From assembly GCA_002437665.1 (NCBI GenBank), contig DJQW01000001.1:392727-456726 (forward strand): a DNA stretch of 64,000 nucleotides. The letters are read 5' to 3'. How positions within the stretch are numbered: position 1 is the first letter of the stretch; every line of letters begins with the position of its first letter. Source of the DNA: Alphaproteobacteria bacterium UBA6376. Its GTDB lineage: Bacteria; Pseudomonadota; Alphaproteobacteria; Rs-D84. Under the pieces are notes generated by a model. It saw only the letters and a list, made by a program, of their open reading frames with translations. It was not told where the DNA came from and did no database searches. The position numbers were made by a program, and so were the translations under genes. Shown here piece by piece: positions 12,265 to 64,000 of the stretch.

Positions 12265-12303
12265 GACCGTCGCTATTGTCCCGCTCTGCCACCCATCCGA
12301 AAC
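12265..12303 (-). repeat. Partial duplicate (about 88 percent identity) of the 5' half of tRNA-Ser
   Basis: gaccgtcgcTATTGTCCcgctctgccacccatccgaaac versus the tRNA at 12112-12148. Confidence 0.6.
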
Positions 12304-12389
12304 GGTTTCTGGTGTTTGCCGGCACTTTTGTTCAGTGCGGTCGCATTGTATATATTTTTTTTATACTTTGCAACCGTAAAATCTGAATC

Positions 12390-12656: not shown

Positions 12657-13750
12657 TTGATTTGTCCTTTGGTTTTGTCCCCCCGCATTGCACAGACAAA
12701 CAGCGTCGCGCCGGCGGCAAACATTATCGCCGACAGTAACTGGCCCATGGTCAGCCCCCAATTTGTTAAAAATCCAATTTGTGCGTCCGGCATGCGGAAC
12801 TGTTCACAGAATATGCGCGCGGTGGCATACGCCATCCCCAGCATCCCGCCAATCGCACCCGCGTGCCGACGCAGTCCCGTGAAACGATACATGCAATACA
12901 TAAATATGAACAAGACGATGCCTTCGGCGGTGGCCTCGTACAATGGACTGGGGTGCAATGGGATTTGGGTATATCCGTTAAACACGACGCCCCACGGCAT
13001 ATCGGTTGGACGACCCATAACCTCCATATTTATAAAGTTCGCAATGCGTCCGAAAAAGAATCCAATCGGGGTCACCACGGCCAGCAAGTCCAATATGCGC
13101 AGCGCGATATTCATTGTGCCACCCGTGATACCGCTGTTCGGCGCGCGATGCAGTTTGCGCGCATACAAGAACGTTGCCACGATTACACCAATCAGCCCGC
13201 CATGGAAACTCATCCCGCCATTCCATACCATAAATATCTGTAACGGGTGCGCCAGAAAATAGGGCAGGTTATAGAACAAAACGTACCCCAACCGACCCCC
13301 AAGAATCACGCCAAAAATCACCGCGGTCAACAGGTCGTCCATTTGCGCTTTGTTTAATTTAATCTGGCTGTCACTGCGCCGCATCAGGTGGCGGAACAAA
13401 TAATACCCCGCAATGAATCCGGCAATATACGCCAACGCGTACCAACGAATGTCCACGCCCAGGACAGAAAACGCAACAGGTGAAATTGGGTTGACTGTTA
13501 TTGCCATCTTAAATCCCTTGAAATTACGGGGGCATTGTATTATATATTCGGTGAATAACAAGGAGAAAGTTATGATTGCAAAGAAATCATTAAACCAGGT
13601 ATCGCCCGCCGCCACACGTAACAACGGCATGGGATTGTATCTGAAACGCGTATTCGCACTGATGTTTGCTGCGATTGGCGTAACGGCATTGGCATCGTTT
13701 GTCACGATGGTAACGCCACTGATTGACATGATGTTTACAGAAACCGGCAT
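12653..13750 (-). CDS. lgt: Prolipoprotein diacylglyceryl transferase
   Basis: 365 aa polytopic membrane protein with Lgt-like N-terminus (ITVNPISPVAF...YALAYIAGFIAGYYL). Confidence 0.8.
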   Translation of the reverse strand: MPVSVNIMSISGVTIVTNDANAVTPIAANISANTRFRYNPMPLLRVAAGDTWFNDFFAIITFSLLFTEYIIQCPRNFKGFKMAITVNPISPVAFSVLGVDIRWYALAYIAGFIAGYYLFRHLMRRSDSQIKLNKAQMDDLLTAVIFGVILGGRLGYVLFYNLPYFLAHPLQIFMVWNGGMSFHGGLIGVIVATFLYARKLHRAPNSGITGGTMNIALRILDLLAVVTPIGFFFGRIANFINMEVMGRPTDMPWGVVFNGYTQIPLHPSPLYEATAEGIVLFIFMYCMYRFTGLRRHAGAIGGMLGMAYATARIFCEQFRMPDAQIGFLTNWGLTMGQLLSAIMFAAGATLFVCAMRGDKTKGQIK

Positions 13751-14303
13751 GTCGCCACTGTATTACATTTTGTTGTTTGGTGGACTGGGACTGTCCGTCT
13801 GGGCACAGGCGCGTGCATTTTCAATGTCACCGGCGGCCGCGGCGGCAATTCTGTTTATCTATGCCGCAACATTAGGTATCGTGATGACGCCTCTGTTGCT
13901 GTTCGCATTGTATAACAGCCCGATTACAATTATCGCGGCGTTTGTACTGGCGGCGGTAATGTTCGCATGCATGGCATTGTTTGGTTACAAGACCATCAAG
14001 AATCTGTCATTCTTGGGCGTGTTCTTGACCATGGGTATGATTGGTTTAATCTTGGTTGGATTGGCGTCATTCATTTGGCCGGCGATTATCGGCGGTACAT
14101 TTGGCACAGTCGTATGCCTGATTGGCGTATTGGTATTTGCATTGTTCACCGCGTATGATATGCAGAATTTGAAGTATGCATACAACGCAATGGGCGGTGA
14201 CGAACACCAGAAAAACCAGTTGGCGGTATTGGGCGCGTTGCACCTGTACATCTCGTTCGTGGCAATGTTCCAGTATTTGCTGAGTTTGTTTAACCGCGAC
14301 TAA
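13572..14303 (+). CDS. Bax inhibitor-1/YccA family membrane protein
   Basis: ATG after AGGAGA RBS; seven TM segments; C-terminal FTAYDMQNL...LLSLF pattern. Confidence 0.75.
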   Translation: MIAKKSLNQVSPAATRNNGMGLYLKRVFALMFAAIGVTALASFVTMVTPLIDMMFTETGMSPLYYILLFGGLGLSVWAQARAFSMSPAAAAAILFIYAATLGIVMTPLLLFALYNSPITIIAAFVLAAVMFACMALFGYKTIKNLSFLGVFLTMGMIGLILVGLASFIWPAIIGGTFGTVVCLIGVLVFALFTAYDMQNLKYAYNAMGGDEHQKNQLAVLGALHLYISFVAMFQYLLSLFNRD

Positions 14304-15970: not shown

Positions 15971-16268
15971 AATAAATAAACGGGGCGTTGCCCCGTTTTT
16001 TTTACCCAAACGAATCGGTTGGGAATAAAATGTCAAAGACATTTGTCCCAAAAACGCAGGACAAATGTCGTATCGAAAAATTTTTTACTAAGAAAAAAAT
16101 CGTCGTTTTTTACTGTTTTTGTGAATTTTTCCCAGATTTCTGCGCCTTTTGCTGCGTGCCCCGATTTATACATGATCACATATAAAAGGAGTATAGCCGG
16201 AAAAATCCCCACTGGGTTTATATTGTGAATGTAGACAAAACAACAAACAGACAAAGGTGAAAAAACAA

Positions 16269-16511
16269 ATGACACACAGTGATGTATGGTATGCAATCGA
16301 TTGCTTTGCCAGTGCGCACAAAATGTCCTGTTCTGGATTGGCGCGTCGCAGCGGTCTTGACCCAACAATTTTTAACAAGAGCAAGCGTTGGTCAAAATAC
16401 GGTCAGCCGCGTTGGCCATCAACCGGCAGTATAGCCAAAATTTTGGCAGCGACCGGCGAAACGGTCAGCAATTTCACCAAATACTTTTCGAACAAGCAAA
16501 ATGAATTGTAA
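16269..16511 (+). CDS. Small HTH DNA-binding protein (Ner/Nlp-like candidate), paralog of 57816-58061
   Basis: 80 aa from ATG after AAGGTGA; MTHSDVWYAID...MSCSGLARRSGLDPTIFNKSKRWS...GQPRWPSTGSIAKIL, about 60 percent identical to the paralog. Confidence 0.55.
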   Translation: MTHSDVWYAIDCFASAHKMSCSGLARRSGLDPTIFNKSKRWSKYGQPRWPSTGSIAKILAATGETVSNFTKYFSNKQNEL

Positions 16512-16689: not shown

Positions 16690-17589
16690 ATGGCTACTAT
16701 AAAAACCAGAGTGACCTTGTTGAAAGAACTGTTAGCGTTAAAAGAAGTAATCGATACGGGTCAAATCCAAATCGCCGCGAATAAAAACGGCATCAAACAT
16801 TCCAATATGTCCAAATTGATTTCTGATTTGGAAACGCGCCTGAATGCGACGTTATTGCAACGTACGCCCATGGGCAGTTTGCCAACCAATGCAACACCAG
16901 AAATCTATTCTGCGATTGAGACAATATGCAACGCATTGAATAAAATAGAACAGACCACCCCCGAAGGTGAATTGACCGGTTATATTTCCGTTATGATTGC
17001 CGAAGGTTTGGTTGGCAGTTATATCTTGCGCGAACTGTCACGGTTCTATGCATTGTATCCAAAAATTCGTTTAGATTTATTGACCAATCGGCAACAGAAC
17101 CTGTCGCATATAGAGGTTGCGCTTGTTGATTCAAATTCCAATTATCAAATCCCAGGGCGCACGTTGTTCCGCCTGCGCACACCGGCATATTTCTTTACAA
17201 CACAGGAATATTTGGACACCCACGGTGTGCCACGCGATATGGACGATATGTTGGAAAACTTTGACCTGTGCATGTACCAGTCATATTTGAATATGCCCGA
17301 ATGTTCTTTTATTGCAAAGCGGGCACGTAAACTGAACACGACAACGGATTCGGTTGGATTGATATTCCGCCTGATACGTGACGGCGACGGTATCGGATTA
17401 CTGCCGGCGTGGACGGTGCAACAGCCACCAAAATTGGTGCGCGTACCGAATATAGATTTTGAATACGAACATCGTATGATTGCAGCGTGCAGTCCTAAAT
17501 TGATTGATACACCAAAAATTCGTGCGTTTATCAGATTCCTTGACGATTTCTGTAAAAAACATAATATACCTATTGAAAGGGTATATTAA
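16690..17589 (+). CDS. LysR-family transcriptional regulator
   Basis: 299 aa; N-terminal HTH, C-terminal substrate-binding domain pattern. Confidence 0.7.
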   Translation: MATIKTRVTLLKELLALKEVIDTGQIQIAANKNGIKHSNMSKLISDLETRLNATLLQRTPMGSLPTNATPEIYSAIETICNALNKIEQTTPEGELTGYISVMIAEGLVGSYILRELSRFYALYPKIRLDLLTNRQQNLSHIEVALVDSNSNYQIPGRTLFRLRTPAYFFTTQEYLDTHGVPRDMDDMLENFDLCMYQSYLNMPECSFIAKRARKLNTTTDSVGLIFRLIRDGDGIGLLPAWTVQQPPKLVRVPNIDFEYEHRMIAACSPKLIDTPKIRAFIRFLDDFCKKHNIPIERVY

Positions 17590-17592
17590 ATT

Positions 17593-18075
17593 ATGTTGGT
17601 TAAATCAGAATACGCATCGCCGATTGGTAAATTGACATTGGTCGCATCTGATAATGCGCTGGTGGGGCTGTGGATTGCAGGGCAACGTTATCATGGCGAT
17701 GTGTCGGATATTCCATTTGGCGACAATGCGATATTGCAACGCGCATCGCGTTGGCTGGATGATTATTTTGCGGGTGGCCGCCCAACTGTTGATTTTGAAT
17801 TGTCGCCACGCGGCACGGCATTTCAGTGTGCGGTGTGGCGTGCATTGCGCGAAATACCATATGGTGCGCGCGCATCATATTCCGATATCGCGCGTCGTGT
17901 CGGATGCGCATCTGCGCGGGCGGTTGGTGGTGCGGTCGGTCGCAATCCGATTTCGATTATTGTTCCATGCCATCGCGTTGTGGGCGCGCATGGTACAATG
18001 ACGGGCTATGCCGGTGGGATCGCAACCAAGGAAAAATTATTGAATTGGGAACAGGGCGTTATTCGCGCCAAATAA
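17593..18075 (+). CDS. ogt: Methylated-DNA--protein-cysteine methyltransferase
   Basis: 160 aa; PCHRVV active-site motif. Confidence 0.85.
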   Translation: MLVKSEYASPIGKLTLVASDNALVGLWIAGQRYHGDVSDIPFGDNAILQRASRWLDDYFAGGRPTVDFELSPRGTAFQCAVWRALREIPYGARASYSDIARRVGCASARAVGGAVGRNPISIIVPCHRVVGAHGTMTGYAGGIATKEKLLNWEQGVIRAK

Positions 18076-18760
18076 CAGACGCAAACATTCCATTTATTGT
18101 ATCGCGCAAATTCGCGTCATCAAAAAACTGATTGCGCTGGGCGGGTGTTGTGCCGTGTTCGTTATCTTCGAAATGCGGAATGTATTTCTGAATGGCAATT
18201 TTTTGCACACCACGATTGTGCAAATCGCGGGTGATTTCCATTAAATCCAGTTTTGAAACAAATCGCGGATCACATGTAATGCGAACCTCATAATCTTTGC
18301 CGGTCGCCTGCCATATGTCCAAACTGTGAATCATGCGGTCGTGGGCAATATTTTGACCCGACAACGCACCATATTTATCACGCGTGGTCTTATAATCCAA
18401 ACCAATCCAGTCAACTGTATCGGCGGCGCGTGCCAAATTTTCAGGGTAAAAACCATTTGTGTGCAGGCCGATTTTGAAACCCAAATCGCGAACGCGTCGC
18501 ATATAATCAATCGCCGCGTCCCCCTGCATCAATGCTTCGCCGCCGGAAAAGACGACGGCTTCTAATTTGCCGACGCGATTACGTAACCAATCAAAAACCT
18601 TGTCTGGGTCGTATTCGCCATCGCCAACATTCAACAAATGGGGATTTGAACAGTACACGCATCGCAACGGACACCCGCGCAGGAACAGCACCGCGGCCAG
18701 TTTCCCTGGGTAATCAATTGTTGTAAACGATACCAAACCCCCAATTTGAATGTCAGACAT
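18059..18760 (-). CDS. nrdG: Anaerobic ribonucleotide reductase activating protein (radical SAM)
   Basis: 233 aa; CPLRCVYCSNP cluster motif; downstream of nrdD. Confidence 0.85.
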   Translation of the reverse strand: MSDIQIGGLVSFTTIDYPGKLAAVLFLRGCPLRCVYCSNPHLLNVGDGEYDPDKVFDWLRNRVGKLEAVVFSGGEALMQGDAAIDYMRRVRDLGFKIGLHTNGFYPENLARAADTVDWIGLDYKTTRDKYGALSGQNIAHDRMIHSLDIWQATGKDYEVRITCDPRFVSKLDLMEITRDLHNRGVQKIAIQKYIPHFEDNEHGTTPAQRNQFFDDANLRDTINGMFASVIWRE

Positions 18761-39855: not shown

Positions 39856-40377
39856 TTAATATTTAATTTCGTCTAATATCAAGTAAAAATCTGGGACATG
39901 TTTTGGTGACATACCATTCAACAAACTAACAGATGCGACCGACCCGAATGGCGTATAAAAATTATCGTCAAATTCATAGTATTTACGAATGCATGCGTTG
40001 ATTTGTTTTTCTAAATCAGACATTGACATATGAATCATCATATCCCAAACTTTTTCTCGAATTTCATCATATTTGTAATCGCCAAACCTGTAATTGTCCC
40101 AGGAATAAGACAAGATTTGTTCTGCTTGTTTTTCGTTCAAATCTTGTATGCTTTTTGGAAAATTGTAACGCGGATGCGCCGCACGATACATATCTAATTT
40201 TTCTTGGTTTACTGCATAAGCATTTTTATGCACATTGACTACGGCTGTTTTTTCTACTGCCTGATTGATAAAATCATCCTTCCTATTGGCAATGGCACAT
40301 GCCGGAATCAACAAAAACAGAACAAACAAGAACTTCTTCATATGCTGATTATGGCAAAGCCCCTGTATAAAAATCAA
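39856..40377 (-). CDS. Secreted hypothetical protein in AT-rich islet
   Basis: 173 aa; signal peptide (MKKFLFVLFLLIPACAIA); K/D/Y-rich. Confidence 0.5.
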   Translation of the reverse strand: MIFIQGLCHNQHMKKFLFVLFLLIPACAIANRKDDFINQAVEKTAVVNVHKNAYAVNQEKLDMYRAAHPRYNFPKSIQDLNEKQAEQILSYSWDNYRFGDYKYDEIREKVWDMMIHMSMSDLEKQINACIRKYYEFDDNFYTPFGSVASVSLLNGMSPKHVPDFYLILDEIKY

Positions 40378-45625: not shown

Positions 45626-46363
45626 TTATTGCGCTGATTCTGAACTTTCTGTGGGGTTCATTTTGGCGTACTCGCGGCGGATTACGTCCATTATGCCCGA
45701 TGCGCGCATATGGCTGGAAAATGCGGTACAGTTGTTAAATTCTGTTTCCAGTGTGCCCCAGCCGGCGTATTCCCAATCAATCAGTCCCGCCACACGCATC
45801 GTGCGCGTGTCAACAATGATATTATTGCAGATGTCGTTGTGATTCCACCCGTCGCCCGCGCCACGTTGCAGGTCGCGAATTTCCGCCGGTCGCGCGTGAT
45901 GTACGGCGGTAATAAATTCCGCCAGTTGCCGTCCCCACAGTTCGCGATTGCGCGCAATGGTGCGTGTTGGCAACTTGTTCATATTGTGCCCGCGAATAAA
46001 GTTGTATTTATAGAACACATATTGGCCCGCATGTACGATTTCGATTTTTGGAATTGCCAATGGCGATATGTGTTCAAACGCATCCGTAATCCGCTTTTCC
46101 CGCATGATGCGTTCGGCGGGCACACTGGTGTCCAAGAATTTACGTGTTTTGAATACGTATTTGTTGTCGACGATAAAACCGATGTTCCATCCGCCCTTTA
46201 TCATTTTTACATGGGTAAAGCGCAGTTCGGGTTGTGCGGCACGCAGTGCACGATATTTGTCGCGCCAATCGAACAGGCGTTTATGGCGAATGCGGTGACG
46301 CACATTGCGATCAGGTATAAAACAGACCAAAATATCACAGATTTCAAAGAACAATTTCCACAT
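45626..46363 (-). CDS. Kinase of the APH/LPS-kinase (Kdo/WaaP/choline-kinase) fold
   Basis: 245 aa; GWNHNDICNNIIVD (HxD catalytic loop) and IDWEYAGWG (DxD-like) motifs. Confidence 0.55.
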   Translation of the reverse strand: MWKLFFEICDILVCFIPDRNVRHRIRHKRLFDWRDKYRALRAAQPELRFTHVKMIKGGWNIGFIVDNKYVFKTRKFLDTSVPAERIMREKRITDAFEHISPLAIPKIEIVHAGQYVFYKYNFIRGHNMNKLPTRTIARNRELWGRQLAEFITAVHHARPAEIRDLQRGAGDGWNHNDICNNIIVDTRTMRVAGLIDWEYAGWGTLETEFNNCTAFSSHMRASGIMDVIRREYAKMNPTESSESAQ

Positions 46364-46426
46364 GTGCGCACCCTTGTTAAATTTGTGAATAATGGTATTG
46401 AAAAAAACGAAAAAAACAAGTACTTT

Positions 46427-48646
46427 ATGGGCATGTTCAAAGCGGGCGATATTGTAAAAGTTTTGATACCAAATGTTGCGAATGCCGGATACGACTATCG
46501 TTTAACGGTGGCGGCTGACATTGGTCAATTTGTTGCGTGTCGCGTCATGAACCGCCCATACGTTGGTGTGGTTTGGGGCATTGGGGATTCGGGGCTGCCC
46601 GCGGAAAAAATCAAAGACATTATTACGGTCTATGATGCGCGTCTGGCGGTTACTGATTTGCAATGGATTGCCAAGATGTCAACGTGGACACTGATGTCAT
46701 TGGGGGCGGTATTGCGATTGATTGTAAATGTGCCCGACGCATTTTTACCGCCCAAGATGGAACAACTCTATGAATTAAATATTGCAGACGGTGTGCGTAT
46801 GACCGCACCGCGTCTGGCGGTTGCCGATGCATTTGCGTCAAACGATGGCGACCCAATGTCGGCATCTGATGTCCAGAATATCGCACACGTCAGTGCCGCC
46901 GTCGTCCGCACAATGATAGGGCAGGGTTTGCTTGTTCCCAGAGAGCAAAGAGCATCCGTCTCCGCTGCGCTCCGCCGCGATATAATATATCACGATTGTG
47001 GTAATATAAAATTAAATGCCGAACAGCAATCGGCGGCGGACAAAATTGGTGCGGCGATTGACGCGGGTGGTTTTTCGGTGCACCTGTTGGACGGTATCAC
47101 GGGCAGTGGTAAAACACAGGTTTATTTTGATGCCGCATGGCGTGCGTATTCGCGCGGTGCGTCAGTATTATTGATGATGCCAGAAATCGCATTGACGGCG
47201 CAGTTTATGCATCGTTTTGCTGCGCGATTTGGTGCCGCCCCCGTCGTGTGGCACAGTAATTTAACCGCCGCGCGTCGTCGTGAAATCTGGCGCGGGGTAT
47301 TAAACGGCGAAATTCGTATGGTCGTCGGCACGCGCAGTGCATTGTTCTTGCCGTGGCAAAAATTGGGTCTGATTGTCGTGGACGAAGAACACGATACATC
47401 ATATAAACAGGAAGATATGGGGAATTATCACGCCCGCGACATGGCGGTCTTGCGTGCCAAGATTGCGGGATTTCCCGTTGTACTGGCCAGTGCGACGCCA
47501 TCGGCGGAAACCCTGCAAAATGTTGCGCTGGGGAAATACCAGTTATTGCGCCTGACATCGCGATTTGGTGGCGCGCAAATGCCAAAAATTGAAACAATCG
47601 ATTTGCGTGAAAATCGCCCCGACACGTACCAGTTGCCATCGGATGATGCAGATTCCGCGCCACGAACGGGCTATCTGTCCACGCCATTGTGCGATGCGAT
47701 TTCAGAAACACTGGCGGCGGGCCGTCAAATAATGCTGTTTATAAATCGCCGCGGTTTTGCCCCGATTGTTCAGTGTAAAAAATGCGGCTGGGTTGCCCAG
47801 TGTCCGGATTGCAGCGTCGGCATGACGTATCACCGCGCGATGGGCAAATTGCTGTGCCATATGTGTGGGCGCACCGCGCCAATGCTGGCCAAATGTCCCG
47901 ATTGCGGCGGCGATGTGTCGACGCGTGGTGCGGGCTTGGAAAAGATAGCAGAGGAGGTGTCCGCCCGTTTTCCATCGGCGCGGGTCGTATTGGTGTCCAG
48001 TGATACAATTTCATCGCGCCAGTCATTGGAACGCTTGGTCGCAAAAATGGAAAACGGCGAAATCGACATCGTCATCGGAACGCAGATTCTGGCCAAGGGT
48101 CACCATTTTCCGAACCTGACACTGGTTGGGGTTGTGGACGCCGATATGGGGTTGTTCGGTACGGATTTCCGTGCCGCCGAACATACGTTTCAGCAATTAT
48201 TTCAGGTTGCCGGTCGTGCCGGTCGTGGCGAATTCCCAGGGCGGGTATTGATGCAAACGTACCAGCCCGACCACCCAGTTTTGCGTGCGATATGTGCGGG
48301 CGATCGTGATGCGTTTATGGCGTCCGACATGGCGGCGCGCCGTGCGGCGGGAATGCCACCGTTTGGTCAACTGATTGCGGTTGTTGTAGAGGGACAAAAG
48401 GAATCCGTATTAAAGGGGTTCTGTGATGCATTGGCGGCGGCCGCGCCGATTGCCGCGGGCGTAAAAATCATGGGCCCAATCGCGGCGGGCGTGTATCAAA
48501 TCAGAAATTGGTATCGTATGCGTTTCTTGGTTGCGGGCGATACAACAACAATGTTGCAACCGGTTGTATCGCATTGGCTGGCCAAGGTAAAACAACCCGC
48601 CAACATTCGGGTCAAGGTTGATGTAAACCCACAAAACTTTATGTGA
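46427..48646 (+). CDS. priA: Primosomal protein N' (replication restart helicase PriA)
   Basis: Walker A GITGSGKT, DEEH, Cys-rich Zn-binding insert (CKKCGW...CPDCS...CHMCG...CPDCG). ATG 46427 chosen; the 45710 extension in the track overlaps the divergent kinase gene. Confidence 0.85.
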   Translation: MGMFKAGDIVKVLIPNVANAGYDYRLTVAADIGQFVACRVMNRPYVGVVWGIGDSGLPAEKIKDIITVYDARLAVTDLQWIAKMSTWTLMSLGAVLRLIVNVPDAFLPPKMEQLYELNIADGVRMTAPRLAVADAFASNDGDPMSASDVQNIAHVSAAVVRTMIGQGLLVPREQRASVSAALRRDIIYHDCGNIKLNAEQQSAADKIGAAIDAGGFSVHLLDGITGSGKTQVYFDAAWRAYSRGASVLLMMPEIALTAQFMHRFAARFGAAPVVWHSNLTAARRREIWRGVLNGEIRMVVGTRSALFLPWQKLGLIVVDEEHDTSYKQEDMGNYHARDMAVLRAKIAGFPVVLASATPSAETLQNVALGKYQLLRLTSRFGGAQMPKIETIDLRENRPDTYQLPSDDADSAPRTGYLSTPLCDAISETLAAGRQIMLFINRRGFAPIVQCKKCGWVAQCPDCSVGMTYHRAMGKLLCHMCGRTAPMLAKCPDCGGDVSTRGAGLEKIAEEVSARFPSARVVLVSSDTISSRQSLERLVAKMENGEIDIVIGTQILAKGHHFPNLTLVGVVDADMGLFGTDFRAAEHTFQQLFQVAGRAGRGEFPGRVLMQTYQPDHPVLRAICAGDRDAFMASDMAARRAAGMPPFGQLIAVVVEGQKESVLKGFCDALAAAAPIAAGVKIMGPIAAGVYQIRNWYRMRFLVAGDTTTMLQPVVSHWLAKVKQPANIRVKVDVNPQNFM

Positions 48647-50035: not shown

Positions 50036-50995
50036 TTATACAACCTCGGTCACGGCACGTAGTGCGCCATCGCGCGACAGTTGTACAACACGAATTTTCT
50101 TTTTCATTTCCGCAATTAAATCAGTGCGGTTATACGCCGGTTGGGTATGCAAGATACGATCGGCAAATGCGGCGTATGCGGCCTCGGCACTCTCGGCATG
50201 AATGGTGGTATAGAAATGGTCGTGACCCGTCCCCAGCATTTCCCACAGAACCGCTGCATTGTCGGTTGAAATTTCACCGCCGATAATCACGTCGGGCGTC
50301 ATACGCACAACCAAATCCAGCAATCGGGCATAATTAAACTCGTTTGTCTGTTCCGTACGTGACAAAACAAAGTGAACTCGGTTCGCCTGTGGTACGCGAA
50401 TTTCGCGCGCATCTTCGACCGTAATCACACGACTGTTTTGGTCAATCAGCGTCAGCATGTGATTCAAGAATGTCGTTTTACCGGTTGCGGTTGCGCCACT
50501 GATTAAAATCGGACTGCCGTCATTTATGGCGGACATCAAACGGTCGTACGGGTCATCAGGTCGCACGTTTTCGCGTGGTTTAACCTTTAACAACTGTTGT
50601 CCGCGCGCCAAATGATAGTTTGCAAACGATGTGTCGCCCGCACCACCACCACGAATATTTAACGCCACACCGCCCGTAACGTCGCGGTCATCATATTGAA
50701 CATTCGGGCCCGCAATCGCGGTGAAACGGTGACTGCCCGGCAGGGTTGCATACACCACCGGCACACCGTGAATTGGATCAAACGGCTGTTCATAAATGTT
50801 TGCCACCGTGTGAATTAAATCCACCAAATACTGTTTGGTCAGTACCGGCGCATCATACGCCACCCACGGCACGCGCGCGCCGTGCAGTCGCATCCACACC
50901 TGACCGGCGTGGTTGATTGCGATTTCTTCTACGAATGACGGACGATAAAATTCCGCCAACGGTTTCAGCAAAGAATCCAGAACTACATTTGACAT
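50036..50995 (-). CDS. VirB11-family (type II/IV secretion) hexameric ATPase, orphan
   Basis: 319 aa; EIAINHAGQVWMRLHG, Walker A ISGATATGKTTFLN, VITVEDAREI, PDVIIGGEIS, GHDHFYTTIHAES. Confidence 0.75.
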   Translation of the reverse strand: MSNVVLDSLLKPLAEFYRPSFVEEIAINHAGQVWMRLHGARVPWVAYDAPVLTKQYLVDLIHTVANIYEQPFDPIHGVPVVYATLPGSHRFTAIAGPNVQYDDRDVTGGVALNIRGGGAGDTSFANYHLARGQQLLKVKPRENVRPDDPYDRLMSAINDGSPILISGATATGKTTFLNHMLTLIDQNSRVITVEDAREIRVPQANRVHFVLSRTEQTNEFNYARLLDLVVRMTPDVIIGGEISTDNAAVLWEMLGTGHDHFYTTIHAESAEAAYAAFADRILHTQPAYNRTDLIAEMKKKIRVVQLSRDGALRAVTEVV

Positions 50996-57815: not shown

Positions 57816-58061
57816 ATGACACACGAAGATGTATGGCGCGCAATAGAACGTTTCGCCGATGAACACGGCATGTCTTGTTCCGGATTGGCCCGATGCAGCG
57901 GCCTTGATCCAACCACATTTAATCGCAGCAAACGCTGGTCGCGCGAGGGGCAGCCACGCTGGCCATCAACCAACAGTATTTCCAAAATATTGTCGTCAAC
58001 GGGGGCGAATATCGCCGATTTTACCAAGTTTATTGACCCGCCCGCACGTTCACGCGAATAA
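57816..58061 (+). CDS. Small HTH DNA-binding protein (Ner/Nlp-like candidate), paralog of 16269-16511
   Basis: 81 aa from ATG after AGGAGA; MTHEDVWRAIERFADEHGMSCSGLARCSGLDPTTFNRSKRWSREGQPRWPSTNSISKIL. Confidence 0.55.
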   Translation: MTHEDVWRAIERFADEHGMSCSGLARCSGLDPTTFNRSKRWSREGQPRWPSTNSISKILSSTGANIADFTKFIDPPARSRE

Positions 58062-58146
58062 TCGCACAAATCTGACAATGCCGCGCATGGGGTGTTGCGC
58101 GGTATTTTTTATGGACAATCGCGTGGTGTTCGTTTATGCTGAACGT

Positions 58147-58566
58147 ATGTTAAATGGCATCAGAATCTATTCCGCAGATACCGTATGGCGTCGCATATTG
58201 TCTGATTTGGCGGCGACGGTGCTGGATTCGCCCGATGTGACCGCGGTGGATTTTGATGCGCTGAATATTCCGCCACGCGCCACCGCCATGGAATTAAAGG
58301 CAGCAATATTGGCGGCAATGGACAATTCAAATATTATTCGCAATGTGTTTGGACGTGATGTATCGCTGCCGCGCCTGCAACGCCAGATTGTCGTCCTGTT
58401 GGCCCAGACGGGCGGTATGACCGCGGCACAGTTAAAGGTTGCACTGGGCTATTCCCCCAATGCCGCCACGCATACGGTTGATACGGCGATATATCAACTG
58501 CGCCGGACATTTGGACGGGAACTGATTCAAAATAACAATGGGGTGTATAAAATTGGCCGGATATAA
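58147..58566 (+). CDS. Stand-alone OmpR/PhoB-type winged-helix DNA-binding protein
   Basis: About 139 aa; LPRLQRQIVVLLAQTGGMTAAQLKVALGYSPNAATHTVDTAIYQLRRTFG (trans_reg_C pattern). Confidence 0.5.
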   Translation: MLNGIRIYSADTVWRRILSDLAATVLDSPDVTAVDFDALNIPPRATAMELKAAILAAMDNSNIIRNVFGRDVSLPRLQRQIVVLLAQTGGMTAAQLKVALGYSPNAATHTVDTAIYQLRRTFGRELIQNNNGVYKIGRI

Positions 58567-59221
58567 ACTGATTTCTTTTGATAAAATACCCAGTACTCAA
58601 ACATACGCGTTGGACATGGTGGCGTCCGGCACGGCGCGCGATCACACCATTGTTATGGCAGAGGCCCAATCCGCTGGCCGTGGCCGCTATCGCCGTACGT
58701 GGGTGTCGCACCATGGTAATTTGTATGCCAGTTTTATTTTCAGTGCGCCCGAACGCGATCCGCGTCTGTCGTATATGGTGGCGGTTGCAATCGCAGAAAC
58801 GATTCTGTCGTTTGGAATTACACCCGCGATAAAATGGCCAAATGATATCTTGATTGATGGGAAAAAGGTTTGTGGTGTCTTGATTGAATACGCCGGCGCG
58901 TTTGTAATTGTTGGCATCGGCATCAATATTAAATCCAATCCAACGGTTGCCGAAAATGTGACAACCAAATTGGAAAACTATGCCGATGTGCAAAAGGGGG
59001 AATTATTAAATCGCCTGATGCGCAATCTGGACAAATGGATGAATACGGATTTTGCAACCGTGCGTGCACGCTGGATGGAATTGGCAATCGCATTGCGCAA
59101 AATTGTAAAGTACCGCGACCAAGACGTCGAATTGATTGAAATAAACGAAAATGGTGCGCTGGTTTTGCGCCGTGGTTCGGAATATCTGTTGGCGTATGGC
59201 GACGAAATCAGTATGAAATAA
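58538..59221 (+). CDS. birA: Biotin--[acetyl-CoA-carboxylase] ligase (group I, no HTH)
   Basis: 227 aa; GRGRYRRTW and KWPNDILIDGKKVCGVLIE motifs. Confidence 0.8.
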   Translation: MGCIKLAGYKLISFDKIPSTQTYALDMVASGTARDHTIVMAEAQSAGRGRYRRTWVSHHGNLYASFIFSAPERDPRLSYMVAVAIAETILSFGITPAIKWPNDILIDGKKVCGVLIEYAGAFVIVGIGINIKSNPTVAENVTTKLENYADVQKGELLNRLMRNLDKWMNTDFATVRARWMELAIALRKIVKYRDQDVELIEINENGALVLRRGSEYLLAYGDEISMK

Positions 59222-59265: not shown

Positions 59266-59294
59266 TTGACTTTTTACGCGATTTGTGATACTAT
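59266..59294 (+). promoter_or_regulatory. Strong sigma70-like promoter TTGACT-N17-TACTAT
   Basis: Read directly; followed by two hairpin+T8 terminators before the next start codon. Confidence 0.55.
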
Positions 59295-59320
59295 GCAAAA
59301 CATCAACAAGCAAGATTATG

Positions 59321-59344
59321 TCCGCATCAGGCGGATTTTTTTTA
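59321..59344 (+). terminator. Rho-independent terminator (TCCGC-atcag-GCGGA + T9)
   Basis: Hairpin plus U-run, about 30 nt downstream of the predicted TSS. Confidence 0.5.
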
Positions 59345-59355
59345 TTGCAATTTTT

Positions 59356-59387
59356 GACCGCGATTTTTCCATCGCGGTCTTTTTTTT
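59356..59387 (+). terminator. Rho-independent terminator (GACCGCGAT-ttttcc-ATCGCGGTC + T8)
   Basis: 9-bp perfect stem plus U-run, 24 nt before ATG 59411. Confidence 0.55.
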
Positions 59388-59410
59388 ATACCAAAATATG
59401 GGGGACGCAT

Positions 59411-59800
59411 ATGGAATTGGAACTGATAACGAACGGCGCGCAAATGACGCGTGATGCATATAAAATCGCACGCACGGTTTATGCCGAAACATCTGGCAAA
59501 TCATTACCATTGGTCGAAGCGTTCACATCAATGATTGCAAATATTGCGCGCGCCCGTGGTATCGCGCCAGCATCTGTTGTGGCGGATACCGGTTTATTCA
59601 CGCATGACGCAAACACAGAAATTGATACAACGGGTCGCGCGTTTCAAATGTGCCTGCGCACCGCACAACGAATGTTGCGTGGTAATTTAATGGACGCGTC
59701 GCACGGTGCAACACGATTTCACGCAGCCAATCAAATGCCAGATTGGGCGGTGTCGCGTGGATACATCGCCGATATTGATGGTGTGCTGTTTTATCTGTAA
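59411..59800 (+). CDS. Cell-wall hydrolase, SleB-like (Hydrolase_2 family)
   Basis: About 129 aa; IARTVYAETSGKS...SMIANIARARG...ATRFHAAN..PDWA...IADIDGVLFY pattern. Confidence 0.55.
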   Translation: MELELITNGAQMTRDAYKIARTVYAETSGKSLPLVEAFTSMIANIARARGIAPASVVADTGLFTHDANTEIDTTGRAFQMCLRTAQRMLRGNLMDASHGATRFHAANQMPDWAVSRGYIADIDGVLFYL

Positions 59801-59815
59801 TCGTGTGGTGAAAAA

Positions 59816-60007
59816 ATGCAACGTATAATTCATGGTGGATTTTTATCAGACCGTCGCACGCAAATTATGTCGGGCGTCGGTATATTGTCGGCGGTCGCCG
59901 CATACTTGGTTGGCGACAGCGATATATTCATATTACTGCAAACGATATTTACGCTTGGCGGAATTTATTTTATGCGCAAACAACCAAACACAACCAAAGG
60001 AAAATGA
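59816..60007 (+). CDS. Small membrane protein (holin-like candidate)
   Basis: 63 aa; two hydrophobic helices; follows the hydrolase gene. Confidence 0.3.
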   Translation: MQRIIHGGFLSDRRTQIMSGVGILSAVAAYLVGDSDIFILLQTIFTLGGIYFMRKQPNTTKGK

Positions 60008-60666
60008 TAATGGAAAAGATTCCTGAAAAATTTCAAAACACAGATGGAACATTAAACGCGGACGCATTGATAAAATCATACACTGAATTGGAACGCAAGA
60101 TTGGAACAATGGTATCTGTTCCGACCGCGGACAGTGATGATGCCACGCGTGCGCGATTTAATCGTGCGATTGGTGTGCCCGCATCGGCCGATGAATATCC
60201 AACAAATGATTTGTTTGGTGATGCAGATTTGCAGAAAAAATTTTTGGAAATTGGATTGACATCATCACAGGTTGAACAAATTTATCACATCGCAGATGAA
60301 TTTTTATCACCTGTGTTATCAGATTTATTTGTTGCGCAAAAAACAGAAAATGCATTTGCGGAATTGCAAAAATTTTTTGGCAGTGCGGACAAAATGCACG
60401 ATGCAATAAAACAAATAAATGATTTCGGTACGCGATTTTTACCCGCCGATGCGTTTGATGAATTATGCTCTACACCCCAAGGAATCCAAGGCGTGTACAG
60501 AATGATGCAATCCATTGAGCCGAATGTTGAAATTGCAAATGATGATAATAAAAATTTATCTGATTCTGATTTGCGACGCATGATGCGTGATCCAAAATAT
60601 TGGCGTGATCATGATGCGGAATATGTTCGCAAAATAGAAAATGGTTTCAAAAAATTGTATTCATAA
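60004..60666 (+). CDS. Acidic helical protein (phage scaffold-like candidate)
   Basis: 220 aa; position immediately before the capsid-like gene. Confidence 0.3.
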   Translation: MIMEKIPEKFQNTDGTLNADALIKSYTELERKIGTMVSVPTADSDDATRARFNRAIGVPASADEYPTNDLFGDADLQKKFLEIGLTSSQVEQIYHIADEFLSPVLSDLFVAQKTENAFAELQKFFGSADKMHDAIKQINDFGTRFLPADAFDELCSTPQGIQGVYRMMQSIEPNVEIANDDNKNLSDSDLRRMMRDPKYWRDHDAEYVRKIENGFKKLYS

Positions 60667-60773
60667 CGAAAAAAATTCACTTTCTCCTTTACTAATATTT
60701 TTGTTTCATATAAAATATAAAGTAAGAACAAAAAAATTTGTTCTATCCAAAAAAAATATAAAAGGAGAGAAGA

Positions 60774-61133
60774 ATGGCATTCACATTCTTGAAACCAGCG
60801 GCAAAGAAAGTTGCTGCGAAACCAGCAGCAAAAAAAGTTGCTGTTAAAAAACCAGCGGCGAAAAAGCCAGCTGCAAAACCAGCAGCGAAAAAAGTTGTTG
60901 CTAAAAAACCTGTTGCCAAGAAAGTAGCAGCGAAACCAGCAGCAAAGAAAGTTGCAGTTAAAAAAGTTGCTGCAAAACCAGCGGCAAAAAAAGTAGTTGC
61001 TAAAAAACCAGCAGCGAAAAAACCAGTTGCAAAGAAAGTCGCAGTAAAAAAGCCGGTTGCTAAAAAAGCCCCAGCGAAAAAAGTTGCTGTGAAAAAGCCA
61101 GTTGCCAAGAAAGCACCTGCAAAGAAAAAATAA
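60774..61133 (+). CDS. Lysine/alanine-rich histone H1-like repeat protein (AKKPAAKK)n
   Basis: 119 aa composed almost entirely of (V/P)AAKKPAAKK repeats; the DNA is a tandem repeat. A good RBS (AAAGGAGAGAAGA) precedes the ATG. Confidence 0.6.
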
Positions 61134-61354
61134 TAAATTTCCCCACCGTTTGGTGGGGTTTTTAATTGCATGAAAAATTTCAGTCGTATCGTAATTGGTG
61201 CGACTGAAACTTTTTATCGGATAATTCTGGTGCAATACCCAGAACCCATTTTGTTCGCATCAGGCGGCGCGACATAATCGCACAACCGTTTGATTCGTAT
61301 TTGTCGGACGTAATTCATTACGTCTTTTTTTTATTTTAATCAAAAGGAATTTTT

Positions 61355-62185
61355 ATGTCTGTTTCAATCGATAATGTTTTTATCAAACAATTCGAAGCCG
61401 ACGTTCATTTGGCGTACCAGCAAATGGGCACTAAATTGCGCGGCACAGTGCGCAGTAAATCCGGTGTCATCGGCGCATCAACAACATTTCAAAAGGTTGG
61501 TCGTGGCACGGCCGCAACAAAATCACGTCATGGTATTGTACCGGTTATGAATTTGAATCACGAACCGGTTGAATGCGTGTTACAAGATTACTATGCCGGC
61601 GATTGGGTTGACGCATTGGACGAATTGAAAACCAATATTGACGAACGTCGTGTTGTCGCCAGTGCCGGTGCATACGCATTGGGGCGCAAGACCGATGAAC
61701 TGATTGTGAATGCAATGTCGGGCGCAACCGCATCTGTGGGGGATTATTCAGCCGGCCTGTCCAAAGATTTAATCTTGTCCGCGGTCGAAGAATTGAACAA
61801 GAAAGATATTCCCGATGACGGTCGTCGTTTCGCAGTTGTCGGTGTACACCAGTGGAAAGAATTACTGGGTATCACAGAATTTGTATCGGCGGACTATGTG
61901 GGCAATGACCTGCCGTTGATATCGGGTGGCGCGTCCAAGAAATGGTTGGGCATTACATGGGTGCTGTATAACGCATTGCCATTGTCAGATACGACAAAGC
62001 GTGATTGCTTTATCTATCACGCAACCAGTATTGGTCACGCCTGTGGCCAAGAGGTCAAGACCGATATTTCATGGCACGGTGAACGCGCCGCGCACTTTAT
62101 CAGCAACAGCATGTCCCAAGGAGCGGTTCTGATTGATGGTGACGGTATTGTTCGCATGAAATGCAAAGACGCTGATGGCGAATAA
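61355..62185 (+). CDS. Phage major capsid protein, T7 gp10-like candidate
   Basis: 276 aa; segments LAYQQMGTKLRGTVRSKSG...HEPVECVLQDYYAGDWVDALDEL...ERRVVASAGAYALGRKTDELI parallel T7 gp10 (recalled from memory). Confidence 0.4.
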   Translation: MSVSIDNVFIKQFEADVHLAYQQMGTKLRGTVRSKSGVIGASTTFQKVGRGTAATKSRHGIVPVMNLNHEPVECVLQDYYAGDWVDALDELKTNIDERRVVASAGAYALGRKTDELIVNAMSGATASVGDYSAGLSKDLILSAVEELNKKDIPDDGRRFAVVGVHQWKELLGITEFVSADYVGNDLPLISGGASKKWLGITWVLYNALPLSDTTKRDCFIYHATSIGHACGQEVKTDISWHGERAAHFISNSMSQGAVLIDGDGIVRMKCKDADGE

Positions 62186-62224
62186 CCCCCCAGTTCCACA
62201 TAAACATAACCAAAGGGAAAATAA

Positions 62225-62455
62225 ATGGCTTTTCAGAATAAAAATTTGTCTGTGATTGCGTATGCAAATGGTTTTACATTGTGGCACTATGCCGAAAACG
62301 TAACGATGGCAACAATCACGGCCAGTGGTTATTTCAACGATGTTAAAACATTGATGAACACCGGCGACATTGTGATTATCAATGCGTCTGATAATACATC
62401 ACTGAAAAAGGTTGCTGTTGCGTCTGGCAATGTTACAACCGCCGCATTGGCGTAA
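62225..62455 (+). CDS. Small hypothetical protein in phage-like cluster
   Basis: 76 aa ORF. Confidence 0.3.
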   Translation: MAFQNKNLSVIAYANGFTLWHYAENVTMATITASGYFNDVKTLMNTGDIVIINASDNTSLKKVAVASGNVTTAALA

Positions 62456-62537
62456 TCGCATCTAAAATTTATTGTATGTTGGGTCGGCATGATGTATGTC
62501 GACCCCGTTTTTATTTATAAAGCATGGGAATATTATC

Positions 62538-63059
62538 ATGTTGACCAAAATAGATTTGTGTTCAATGGCATTACTGAAATTGGGCGAAAAACCAATCCAG
62601 TCGTTGTTGGACGATACGGCCGCCGCACAACTGGCGCGCACATTGTTTGACCCGTTGACCGATGCACTGATTGCGGTGCATCCATGGCGATTTGCAACCA
62701 AGAAATTTGAACTGACCAAAAACGCCGATGGCGATTTTTTAATTCCGTCGGAATGTCTGCGCGTGACGCATACCGGTGGCAATGCAATTATTGGCAATCG
62801 CATCACCGCCCAGCCAGACCACATAACGATTGTTGGTCTGACCCGTGTTGCGCCCGATGCGTATCCAGCATATTTCGCATCACTGGTTGCGACAAAATTG
62901 GCAATGGAATTTTGTGTGCCACTGACCGGTGATCAAACAATATTCAGAACACTGGCGGCGTTATATGACGCGGAATTGCAATCTGCAAAATTCATAGACA
63001 GCACCACGACCACCGTCGCGGGTATTGAAAACTTTTCACTGATAAATGCACGATTCTAG
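62538..63059 (+). CDS. Tail tubular protein A (T7 gp11-like) candidate
   Basis: About 173 aa; LKLGEKPIQSLLDDTAAAQLARTL...WRF resembles the gp11 N-terminus ILASIGEPPVSTLEGD...ARRILNKI...WTF. Confidence 0.35.
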   Translation: MLTKIDLCSMALLKLGEKPIQSLLDDTAAAQLARTLFDPLTDALIAVHPWRFATKKFELTKNADGDFLIPSECLRVTHTGGNAIIGNRITAQPDHITIVGLTRVAPDAYPAYFASLVATKLAMEFCVPLTGDQTIFRTLAALYDAELQSAKFIDSTTTTVAGIENFSLINARF

Positions 63060-63075
63060 GATTACGGGGGAACAC

Positions 63076-64000
63076 ATGGGAAATTTTGTAAAAACGACCA
63101 GTTCGTTTGCCAATGGCGATATTGCCCCAGAATTTTATACGCACGATAATTTGTCTGGCCTGTCCGCATTGGTCAATATGGACGTTATTGCTGGGGGCGG
63201 TCTGCGCCGTCGTGCGGGATTGTGCCGCGTTGCCGAATTGGACGCGTCGGCGCGATTGATATCTTTCTCGGTCGGTCAAGATGACGAATACATTCTGGCA
63301 ATAACGGCGGGACACATCAATGTGTACAGCGGCGCGACCCGCGTGTGCGATATCATTGCACCGTGGACGGCGGCGGATATTGCACGGATTCAATATGCCC
63401 AGCGTTTTGGCACAATGATTTTTGTGCATCCGGAATACCAGCCGCGCACATTGCGCAAAACGGAAACTGGGTTTGAATTGACTACATTTGAATTTGCGCG
63501 CAGTGATGATGATATGACACTTCATATACCATTCATGCGATTTGATGACACGCGCGATATAAAAATCACCGTTACCGCAAACAGTGCCGGTAATAATTTT
63601 GCGATATTTACAACCAGCGACGCATTCTGGAACGACGATTGTGTCGGTGGCACATTTTTACTGATGGACAAACAGTGGACTGTGCATCAGGTCACCAGCC
63701 CGACCGTTGCGGTGATGCGTACCAACGGGGCATTCACATTGCCCACCGCCCCCATCACCGATTGGCGCGAGACCGCATTCAGCACCCGTCGTGGTTGGCC
63801 AGTCAGCATTACTTTCCACCAAGACCGATTGGTGTTTGGTGGCGCGCGTGATTACCCATCTGGTGTATGGCTGTCTGGGGTGGGGCGGCATAATGATTTT
63901 GATGTGGGGACAGGATTGGACGATCAGGCGATTTTTATTACCTTGTTGTCCCGCCAGCGTCAGCAAATCTGTACCGTGGTCAGCAGTGATAACCTGCAAA
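63076..64000 (+). CDS. Tail tubular protein B (T7 gp12-like) candidate, 3' end beyond window
   Basis: ATG 63076, open to the window end (more than 308 aa). GGLRRRAGL and HQDRLVFGGARDY segments parallel gp12. Not in the ORF track because there is no stop in the window. Confidence 0.35.
   Translation, partial: MGNFVKTTSSFANGDIAPEFYTHDNLSGLSALVNMDVIAGGGLRRRAGLCRVAELDASARLISFSVGQDDEYILAITAGHINVYSGATRVCDIIAPWTAADIARIQYAQRFGTMIFVHPEYQPRTLRKTETGFELTTFEFARSDDDMTLHIPFMRFDDTRDIKITVTANSAGNNFAIFTTSDAFWNDDCVGGTFLLMDKQWTVHQVTSPTVAVMRTNGAFTLPTAPITDWRETAFSTRRGWPVSITFHQDRLVFGGARDYPSGVWLSGVGRHNDFDVGTGLDDQAIFITLLSRQRQQICTVVSSDNLQ

Follow-up and report, generated by a model that had tools for sequence, protein, structure and literature searches.

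A podovirus-derived gene cluster of Candidatus Enterousia as a probable domesticated particle system with a gene transfer agent-like role

Introduction

To our knowledge, only a handful of gene transfer agent (GTA) lineages have been described, and the alphaproteobacterial ones among them are not of the T7/HTVC010P podovirus type; the genes of RcGTA are siphovirus-type. The idea of a podovirus-like GTA is already known from a different phylum, namely from FpGTA of Faecalibacterium (PMC12946183). This GTA-like element is conserved across its genus, has a podovirus-like morphology according to its authors, and is encoded by a 10.5 kb operon together with a separate 5.5-kb operon; its packaged fragments were measured at 8.4-8.9 kb (PMC12946183). 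The subject of the present analysis is a podovirus-derived gene cluster in the chromosome of a gut alphaproteobacterium of the Candidatus (Ca.) Enterousia type. The cluster begins in a stretch of 64,000 nucleotides (nt) of contig DJQW01000001.1 (positions 392,727-456,726), referred to here in its whole length as the window, and runs past its end.

Members of Ca. Enterousia (order Rs-D84) have genomes of 0.75-1.0 Mb and possess neither a tricarboxylic acid (TCA) cycle nor a respiratory chain, nor standard transporters for sugars, amino acids and peptides (PMC12306168). These gaps suggest a dependence on other cells. Their phage-derived cluster spans roughly 14 kb, of which the window holds the first half, and a description of it was not found in the full-text literature on Enterousia, Rs-D84, T7-like GTAs, split terminases or HTVC010P relatives. 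It is interpreted below as a domesticated podovirus-type particle system for which a GTA-like role is most likely, with a probability of about 0.6. A first-pass annotation of the window had offered a defective prophage and a domesticated phage-derived module as alternatives, and conservation and co-divergence with the host speak for the second.

Gene content of the cluster

The first-pass annotation had recognized eight genes after birA, running from a cell-wall hydrolase to a gp12-like protein and including the T7 order gp10, gp11, gp12. All eight open reading frames (ORFs) are present from 59.4 kb to the window end, on the forward strand and at the coordinates first assigned to them, and profile matches from Pfam and PHROG agree with both the order and the T7-type homology. 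Lengths are given in amino acids (aa).

59411-59800, forward strand: Hyd, endolysin-like cell-wall hydrolase of SleB/Hydrolase_2 type (PF07486, E 5e-5, at 24.3 bits just below the Pfam cut-off of 27; phrog_938 endolysin, E 1.2e-7)
59816-60007, forward strand: small membrane protein, 63 aa (ORF and sequence; no family match in Pfam or PHROG)
60004-60666, forward strand: T7-type scaffolding (capsid assembly) protein (PF05396, E 5.7e-9, above cut-off; phrog_3742, E 4e-11)
60774-61133, forward strand: K/A-repeat (AKKPAAKK)n protein, 119 aa, 96% K/A/P/V (PF07382 HC2, E 9e-15, composition-driven)
61355-62185, forward strand: major capsid protein, T7/HTVC010P-type (PF19821 Phage_capsid_2, E 1e-68; phrog_3437 major head protein, E 6e-72)
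62225-62455, forward strand: p75, small conserved protein, 76 aa (phrog_18004, E 1.8e-12)
62538-63059, forward strand: tail adaptor, T7 gp11-like, tubular protein A (PF17212, E 4e-5, above cut-off; phrog_394, E 2e-30)
63076-64000, forward strand: 5' part of the tail nozzle gene, T7 gp12-like, tubular protein B (phrog_376 tail protein, E 1e-44)

Three of these proteins had been singled out for a structural check, and each of them matches a solved phage structure: the capsid protein matches 9eg4_A (E 5e-25), the adaptor matches 9efk_T and 8ck1_E, a 'Connector Protein' (E ~7e-4), and the nozzle, taken at full length from a relative, matches 8ck1_A, a 'Tail Nozzle' (E 4e-31). The window contains the first 308 of about 570 nozzle residues, and the gene crosses the window end. 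An AlphaFold2 (AF2) model of the capsid protein was unreliable as a check of its fold (pLDDT 51.5), and the sequence matches to solved capsids were taken instead. The position of p75 after the capsid gene is the same in phage relatives, and p75 weakly matches orf16, a chain in the capsid entry 9eg4 (E 0.011); it is possibly a capsid-associated, decoration-like protein. The 63-aa membrane protein adjoins Hyd in all loci that reach that far, and its position suggests a holin. A Hyd homologue sits 3' of the large terminase gene in the outgroup contig L154 (L numbers denote the loci and contigs compared).

The module had been judged defective since neither portal nor terminase lies upstream. The absence is real: housekeeping genes of the host fill the window upstream of 57.8 kb (PriA, GAPDH, MiaA, ParC, LpxI, outer-membrane proteins, a tRNA methyltransferase and tRNAs). 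Both genes are located downstream of the window end, where the gene order was read from the IMG/VR contig L085, which is 99.3% identical to window positions 61355-64000 and continues for 8 kb. The genes after the nozzle follow in this order.

Directly 3' of the nozzle gene, forward strand: p117, protein of 115-117 aa
Between p117 and TerL-N: stub fibre, 188 aa, in most species (~68 loci), with a weak T7-fibre N-terminal match (PF03906)
3' of the stub fibre, forward strand: TerL-N, 199-216 aa, matching the N-terminal ATPase part of large terminases
Between the terminase halves, opposite strand: m224, 224-aa protein
Between the terminase halves, opposite strand: double-HTH protein, 335 aa, with two XRE-type helix-turn-helix (HTH) domains
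Between the terminase halves, opposite strand: dnaB, replicative helicase gene of the host
After the dnaB block, forward strand: TerL-C, 273-282 aa, matching the C-terminal T7-type RNaseH-like nuclease part (PF22530)
After TerL-C, forward strand: portal, T7-type, 407 aa (PF12236)
After the portal, forward strand: Bbp19-like protein, 63 aa
After the Bbp19-like protein, forward strand: p85, 85 aa, with a transmembrane segment and a coiled coil

Among solved structures, 6r21, the portal of T7, is matched by the portal protein (E 2e-9), and the set of head, tail and large-terminase genes is complete. Unrelated host genes beyond the window had been named as the outcome that would speak against a phage origin; further phage genes were found there, with the host dnaB embedded among them, and the phage origin stands. 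A tail fibre, also to be looked for in this region, is present as a stub, whereas internal core genes and att-like repeats were not found.

A second short fibre-like protein (136-170 aa) was observed just after p85 in L028 (11802-12314), L009 (12595-13005) and about 20 other loci. The beginning of this protein (IQIRRG...GE...L.VHDG.T.GG) looks, by eye, like the N-termini of phage tail fibres and Mtd. Because it occurs only in a subset of species, the receptor-binding parts seem to be the variable component.

Conservation and co-divergence with the host

A scan with the portal as query and one genome per species identified relatives in at least 187 species-representative genomes, of which 80 were fetched; these share 79-100% portal identity. 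They are Ca. Enterousia or alphaproteobacterial, 'Rickettsiales' or proteobacterial metagenome-assembled genomes (MAGs), with the exception of one Muribaculaceae-labelled contig, and the (gut) samples behind them are of human, chicken, mouse, deer, sheep and rumen origin. One of them is a closed chromosome of 958,618 bp. Gene content, order and orientation are identical in every locus with enough flank, both flanks being covered by several chromosomal contigs of relatives, and the arrangement of TerL-N, m224, the double-HTH gene, dnaB and TerL-C recurs in 109 of 109 loci. Capsid identity is 80-93% among loci from genome collections and falls to 76% at lowest in the IMG/VR contig L130.

In 62 of 66 species loci, nine core genes of phage origin are all full-length, and no stop codon interrupts them. 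The exceptions are a deletion in L079, a stop in the capsid gene of L078, a partial capsid match in L061 and a p75 slightly under the coverage threshold in L084. In L079 (JAFGMC010000006.1, 4627-5219), about 5 kb are gone from the capsid leader to residue 141 of TerL-N, and the K/A gene, TerL-C, portal, hydrolase and scaffold are retained intact; either the deletion is natural and recent or it stems from the assembly.

The ratios of nonsynonymous to synonymous substitution (dN/dS) are approximate medians over pairwise comparisons with dS between 0.05 and 1.

Portal: 0.039
TerL-N: 0.059
Capsid: 0.068
Nozzle: 0.076
TerL-C: 0.109
Adaptor: 0.155
DnaB (host comparison): 0.054
Frr (host comparison): 0.037

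The scaffold has a higher value (0.25). The words 'remnant' and 'defective prophage' of the first-pass annotation do not survive these results. A T7-like prophage that had lost its portal, terminase and other genes, and whose remaining genes were drifting towards pseudogenes, would hardly keep its ORFs intact in 62 of 66 species with dN/dS values of 0.04-0.15, like those of DnaB and Frr. The portal and both terminase halves are present downstream, catalytic motifs are conserved, and lineages with no more than 63-64% capsid identity still share the terminase split. Decay is thus very improbable, even though it would account for an interrupted terminase gene, for a portal, nozzle and fibre shorter than in phage relatives, for the 5-kb deletion in L079, and for a cluster in which integrase, replication genes, small terminase and ejection proteins were not found. 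Bacteria with genomes below 1 Mb normally shed everything dispensable, and that such genomes spend about 1.2-1.5% on phage-particle genes is strong indirect evidence of a selected function.

Divergence of the cluster also follows the host. Protein distances correlate with those of the ribosome recycling factor Frr, encoded outside the cluster, at r = 0.86 for the portal and r = 0.83 for the capsid (Mantel test, 0 of 2000 permutations), and the mean divergence of the capsid (0.13) is lower than that of DnaB (0.18). The GC content of the element is 44.9%, compared with 45.6% for the window. Integrase, replication initiator, polymerase and RNA polymerase were not found between the housekeeping flanks (L001-L005, L085, L170), where the sole replication gene is the host-type dnaB, and att-like boundary repeats were not found at the cluster edges. 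From these loci, the cluster is vertically inherited, fixed in the Enterousia chromosome and under purifying selection.

The same results make an active mobile element common in Enterousia, either an inducible temperate podovirus or a satellite resembling the capsid-forming phage-inducible chromosomal islands (cf-PICIs), improbable. Its case would draw on the nearly complete set of structural and packaging genes, a CI-like HTH protein and a double-HTH regulator, the dnaB gene within the cluster, and the IMG/VR pipelines, which label the regions proviruses. An active element would not be expected to show the same chromosomal layout in every fetched locus with enough flank (80 of at least 187 fetched), a divergence that tracks host Frr and a GC content equal to that of the host, nor to be devoid of a detectable integrase, att-like repeats and replication initiator; moreover, its dnaB is of host type, and its HTH protein does not have the S24 cleavage domain of the phage homologue.

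IMG/VR lists pieces of 10-14 kb of the chromosomal cluster as viral genomes (UViGs; contigs L085-L131). Many of these begin exactly at the capsid gene and include the host dnaB, and they look like artefacts of provirus prediction. Such provirus calls inflate prophage counts and virus-host links for gut Alphaproteobacteria.

A large terminase encoded by two genes

Alignment to an intact large terminase (TerL) of 510 aa places TerL-N at residues 15-210, ending just after the GTPH...TIY motif, and TerL-C from about residue 206-221 (FLxGYxxLKIP) to the TerL end, with no residues lost between the halves. TerL-N is the ATPase core, and TerL-C comprises the rest of the ATPase region (presumed lid) and the nuclease. 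The motifs are conserved in both: in TerL-N, Walker A (GKST) is found in 115 of 117 sequences and Walker B (hhhCDDhE) in all 117, and in TerL-C the acidic nuclease motifs WDPS/A and DDGLDA/DDGIDA are each found in 115/115 and the ETNG motif in 98/115.

The break falls at the same residue in Enterousia and in two further alphaproteobacterial lineages, L167 (contigs up to 1.05 Mb) and L169 (a 455-kb contig), both with 31% GC and with capsids 63-64% identical. In these lineages the TerL halves are adjacent, with a non-coding spacer of 237-334 bp between them, and the clusters are flanked by host genes. The same split point in three divergent lineages indicates that the fission of TerL is old and shared; by comparison of these loci, only in Enterousia has the dnaB block been inserted into the spacer. 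The large terminase would most simply be a two-subunit enzyme, and its conserved two-gene form provides a natural experiment on separating the ATPase and the nuclease of a packaging motor.

Other explanations of the interruption were considered. Programmed excision of the dnaB block, like that of the sigK skin element, was rejected as the TerL-N stop and the TerL-C start show no direct or inverted repeats that are consistent across three loci; a recombinase for such excision was not found, and TerL-N ends at a stop codon of its own, just as TerL-C begins at a start codon of its own. An intron was likewise rejected, the 334-bp spacer of L132/L167 having no Rfam match at E up to 1; this spacer resembles AT-rich intergenic DNA with promoter-like and terminator-like signals. 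The dnaB gene passes the cellular 'replicative DNA helicase' equivalog NF006606 (613 bits, cut-off 540), and a phage derivation was discarded because the phage_DnaB model scores 412 bits, under its cut-off of 499. A second dnaB may lie elsewhere in the genome.

L169 differs in two further respects. A Peptidase_M15_3 gene (11696-12097) is inserted between its adaptor and nozzle genes, and no portal lies within 4 kb after TerL-C, where an Amidase_3 gene and ftsZ are found instead (17470-18564); a portal of L169, if there is one, must therefore lie elsewhere.

Control signals and candidate regulators

The region at the entry of the cluster contains possible control signals and regulator genes, and further signals lie within the cluster.

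57816-58061, forward strand: HTH81, 81-aa Cro/CI-type HTH protein, 82-90% identical across the genus
58077-58106: terminator-like hairpin after HTH81
58147-58566, forward strand: p139, 139-aa protein with a C-terminal winged helix (AF2 pLDDT 85.3)
58538-59221, forward strand: birA, class-I biotin-protein ligase gene of the host (TIGR00121, 155 bits, cut-off 83; PF03099)
59266-59394, forward strand: entry region with a promoter and two tandem terminators, directly 5' of the first phage gene
61160-61354, forward strand: conserved, structured leader (~190 nt) of the capsid gene (alignment of 36 loci)
62481-62505: terminator-like hairpin after p75

The entry promoter is a near-consensus sigma-70 promoter (TTGACT, 17 nt, TG-TACTAT) and is conserved in 15 of 15 aligned loci. 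It is followed by two hairpins, each with a subsequent U-tract, in 12 of 12 sequences folded singly. The hairpin stems differ in sequence between lineages yet stay self-complementary, and RNAalifold gave little on the birA-Hyd spacer because the hairpin sequences are too different to align. Rfam returned a sub-threshold match of 59296-59394 (forward strand) to the alphaproteobacterial small RNA mmgR/suhB (27.2 bits, gathering score 41, E 0.019). The entry region is a candidate antitermination gate or, alternatively, a candidate separate gene for a short RNA (~85-90 nt). A promoter running into terminators ahead of lysis and morphogenesis genes points, with moderate confidence, to control by antitermination.

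The capsid leader contains three hairpins: one of 14 bp (TCAGTC...GACTGA) that a T-run follows, one that is invariant (GGCGC...GCAYAACC), and one, variable and terminator-like, that precedes the ribosome-binding site. Terminator-like sites are at 61178-61209 and 61306-61325. Of the 23 base pairs that RNAalifold predicts, 15 show compensatory changes, and the leader has no Rfam family match. A sigma-54 promoter at GGCGC...GCAYAACC is unlikely, since the spacing varies by several bases across species and the intervening bases covary as a hairpin.

Candidate regulators of the cluster are p139, HTH81 and the double-HTH protein adjoining dnaB. In tblastn searches HTH81 is 88% identical to its counterpart in L002 and 51-64% identical to a minus-strand repressor of nine outgroup contigs (including L133, L144 and L161). 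The L144 repressor consists of HTH_26 and Peptidase_S24; HTH81 is homologous to its N-terminal HTH and does not have the S24 self-cleavage domain. A 65%-identical HTH81 paralogue is located at window positions 16257-16511 (forward strand), flanked by the genes of glycyl-tRNA synthetase and of a 299-aa protein that by eye resembles LysR-type regulators. Together with a second copy in L170 (52% identity), this paralogue indicates that a small HTH family is duplicated in these genomes.

For p139, 175 homologues were found on contigs of the Enterousia kind, with 54-98% identity among the matches listed. Foldseek relates it weakly to OmpR/PhoB-type effector domains (VbrR, AdeR; E 0.009-0.04; target-length-normalised TM-score, TMt, 0.52-0.58), and the Pfam match to Trans_reg_C has an E of 0.03. 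It is a putative clade-restricted DNA-binding regulator, to judge from the structural model, and, given the overlap of its stop with the start of birA, it may act for birA rather than for the phage genes.

The K/A-repeat cassette

Between scaffold and capsid, nearly all Enterousia-type loci carry an ORF of 84-163 aa with a conserved start (MAFTFLKP) and a K/A/P/V fraction of at least 0.69, above 0.88 in most loci. The copy in the window has signals of its own, namely a strong ribosome-binding site, a promoter-like site at 60688-60716 and a terminator at 61141-61158. L130 and L132-L164 either lack the slot or have it filled differently: the gap between scaffold and capsid is only 200-300 bp in related phage-like contigs, and L130 and L167 have unrelated membrane-protein genes in this slot. 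By this distribution and these signals, the K/A gene is a self-contained cassette inserted specifically in Enterousia, arranged like a 'moron' (a gene added to a phage genome together with the means of its own expression). The K/A protein had been called an unusual DNA-condensing passenger in the first-pass annotation. That the insertion is unusual holds, as it occurs in nearly all Enterousia loci and not in related phage-like contigs, and 'passenger' is a fair word; as for its role, the protein may condense DNA inside the particle, or it may be a nucleoid protein of the host whose gene has settled in the cluster. A capsid-independent role is mildly favoured because the gene survives in L079, where capsid genes are missing.

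Proposed function

In the GTA-like role considered most likely, the cluster genes would build small T7-like particles that package DNA, and the particles would be released by lysis of a subpopulation, by analogy with GTAs. Transcription would start at the strong entry promoter and meet the two tandem terminators, so that read-through would need an antitermination factor or signal; the terminators 3' of the K/A gene, within the capsid leader and 3' of p75 would have to be passed as well.

A domesticated particle with a role other than DNA transfer is a serious rival, if on balance an unlikely one. It could be a killing or lysis device, a vehicle that brings protein or DNA to a cell, partner or host, on which the bacterium probably depends, or a capsid for storage or dispersal that contains the K/A-rich protein and nucleic acid. 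The conservation evidence is the same for this possibility as for a GTA. The lineage-specific K/A cassette between scaffold and capsid fits it, as do the stub fibres, the small terminase and ejection proteins that were not found in the cluster, and metabolic gaps that suggest dependence on other cells. However, purifying selection acts on both TerL halves and their ATPase and nuclease motifs are intact, an argument for retained DNA packaging, and no feature points to a specific alternative cargo. The phage-derived killing devices known to us are tail-only structures that include neither capsid nor terminase.

Several points weigh against a GTA-like role, or against domestication itself. The particles, the packaged DNA and its transfer are predicted here from genes, and every genome is a MAG of an uncultured organism. 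The activity of a terminase made of two polypeptides is putative. Small terminase and internal core/ejection proteins were not found in the cluster (PHROG, Pfam and, for the small ORFs, NCBIfam searches included), and its fibres are stubs only; recognition and delivery of DNA are thus hard to explain from the genes of the cluster, though the missing ones could lie elsewhere in the genome. The loss of the region from capsid to TerL-N in L079 implies that the system is dispensable at least there, unless it is a MAG artefact. The dN/dS ratios are approximate, because many pairs lie at dS 0.6-0.9, near saturation, although the contrast with neutral decay is large all the same. Low dN/dS is also seen in active phages, so that what supports domestication is the synteny, the co-divergence and the missing modules. 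Finally, no CtrA box (TTAA-N7-TTAA) occurs in the whole window, compared with 2.6 expected by chance, so there is no link to the known alphaproteobacterial GTA regulator.

A more specific form of the GTA reading can be put forward tentatively. It holds that the cluster represents a new, independently domesticated GTA family of T7/HTVC010P ancestry, universal in Ca. Enterousia, which would have been kept as DNA exchange counters mutational decay. Its two-gene terminase would be found also in at least two low-GC alphaproteobacterial lineages (contigs of 0.45-1.05 Mb). A sequence-specific packager might have become a non-specific packager of host DNA through the split of the ATPase core from the nuclease, the lack of a small terminase and the addition of the K/A protein. 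With dnaB and birA, both essential, interleaved among its genes, the cluster would not easily be lost. If true, this would be an independent, podovirus-derived origin of a GTA, genus-wide, with split-terminase relatives in two other lineages.

Host genes around the cluster

Throughout the genus Enterousia, birA is directly 5' of the phage genes. In the non-Enterousia lineage L167 it is found at the opposite end, after the portal (L167:20073-20828). The bordering of the cluster by birA in both may reflect an ancestral insertion site or a shared rearrangement. Host genes 3' of the cluster are yraN, bamA, rseP, cdsA, uppS and frr, in an order that differs among species.

PriA (window 45710-48646, forward strand) is unusually long at 978 aa, and its recognized domains begin only at residue 250, leaving a long N-terminal extension. 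Near it, a gene for a VirB11/T2SSE-type ATPase is located at 50036-50995 (reverse strand), and VirB8-like genes are found near the cluster in relatives (L005:19638-20363); together these genes give hints of a type IV secretion system in the reduced Enterousia genomes. In one lineage (L005, OZ007020.1), positions 12197-13819, 3' of the cluster, contain a gene for a 285-aa protein made of a Phage_Mu_F fragment, a GH108 lysozyme and PG_binding_3. It is followed by a gene for a secreted 151-aa protein, a 51%-identical homologue of which is encoded at window positions 39859-40341 (reverse strand), adjoining tRNA-Glu.

Comparison with phages and known systems

The nearest capsids of cultured phages are those of Pelagibacter phage EXVC031P ('Hodr', 44%) and HTVC010P (31%). 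Uncultured contigs with capsids 58-64% identical, such as L144, look like ordinary temperate phages. L144 has a CI-like repressor (HTH and Peptidase_S24), an 802-aa fibre, a 512-aa portal, a 632-aa nozzle and an intact TerL of 510 aa, and its order is portal, Bbp19-like protein, scaffold, capsid, p75, adaptor and nozzle, with several small genes before TerL. A homologue of the fibre N-terminus is found among the small genes of L163-type contigs. Podoviruses of the HTVC010P and L144 types share with Enterousia a homologous capsid, portal, Bbp19-like protein, scaffold, p75, adaptor and nozzle, and the order from scaffold to nozzle is the same. These phages are 34-36 kb long and have early and replication genes, a portal before the scaffold and a long fibre, whereas the Enterousia cluster has none of these. 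Compared with L144-type phages, the Enterousia portal is about 100 residues shorter and has been relocated behind the terminase, the nozzle is about 60 residues shorter, the phage repressor has been reduced to its HTH domain (HTH81) and the fibre has been cut to its attachment domain (188 aa). The L167 fibre, at 237 aa, covers only the first ~120 columns of fibre profiles that are 650-1500 long.

With T7 the cluster has in common the families of the scaffold (PF05396), adaptor (PF17212), portal (PF12236), fibre N-terminus (PF03906, weak) and RNaseH-like domain (PF22530). A T7-like head and tail module is therefore present (portal, scaffold, capsid, adaptor, nozzle), with the portal after the terminase and not before the scaffold. 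A complete T7 virus is not: the cluster has a rearranged gene order and a split terminase, and it is without phage RNA polymerase, replication and DNA-metabolism genes, the gp13-gp16 core, a full fibre, a gp18 homologue (small terminase) and an unsplit large terminase. Satellites such as PICIs and cf-PICIs also differ, as no integrase, primase/replicase or flanking repeats were found, the position is fixed and divergence follows the host.

Described GTAs (RcGTA-like elements, BaGTA and VSH-1) are the closest in organization. They are likewise chromosome-fixed clusters of head, tail and terminase genes with no integration or self-replication genes, inherited vertically across a clade under purifying selection and associated with lysis genes, and the hosts of RcGTA and BaGTA are also alphaproteobacteria. 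Homology with RcGTA was not observed: every structural protein of the Enterousia cluster matches T7/podovirus families, RcGTA being set apart by its family content as generally understood. The split terminase, the interleaved dnaB and birA, the lack of a recognized small terminase and the lack of CtrA boxes are further differences. FpGTA, compared by description only, is also a GTA-like element of a gut bacterium, but its host is a Gram-positive Firmicute.

The control region has its nearest parallel in the late control of lambdoid phages (pR', tR' and Q), where terminators likewise follow a strong promoter directly, before the genes for lysis and morphogenesis, and more of them lie within the operon. 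In Enterousia the terminators at the entry are two in tandem, and no Q homologue was found. In relation to all of these systems, the features that appear to be new are the T7/HTVC010P ancestry of such a cluster in reduced-genome Alphaproteobacteria, the two-gene terminase, the interleaved essential host genes, the K/A cassette and the promoter-terminator gate.

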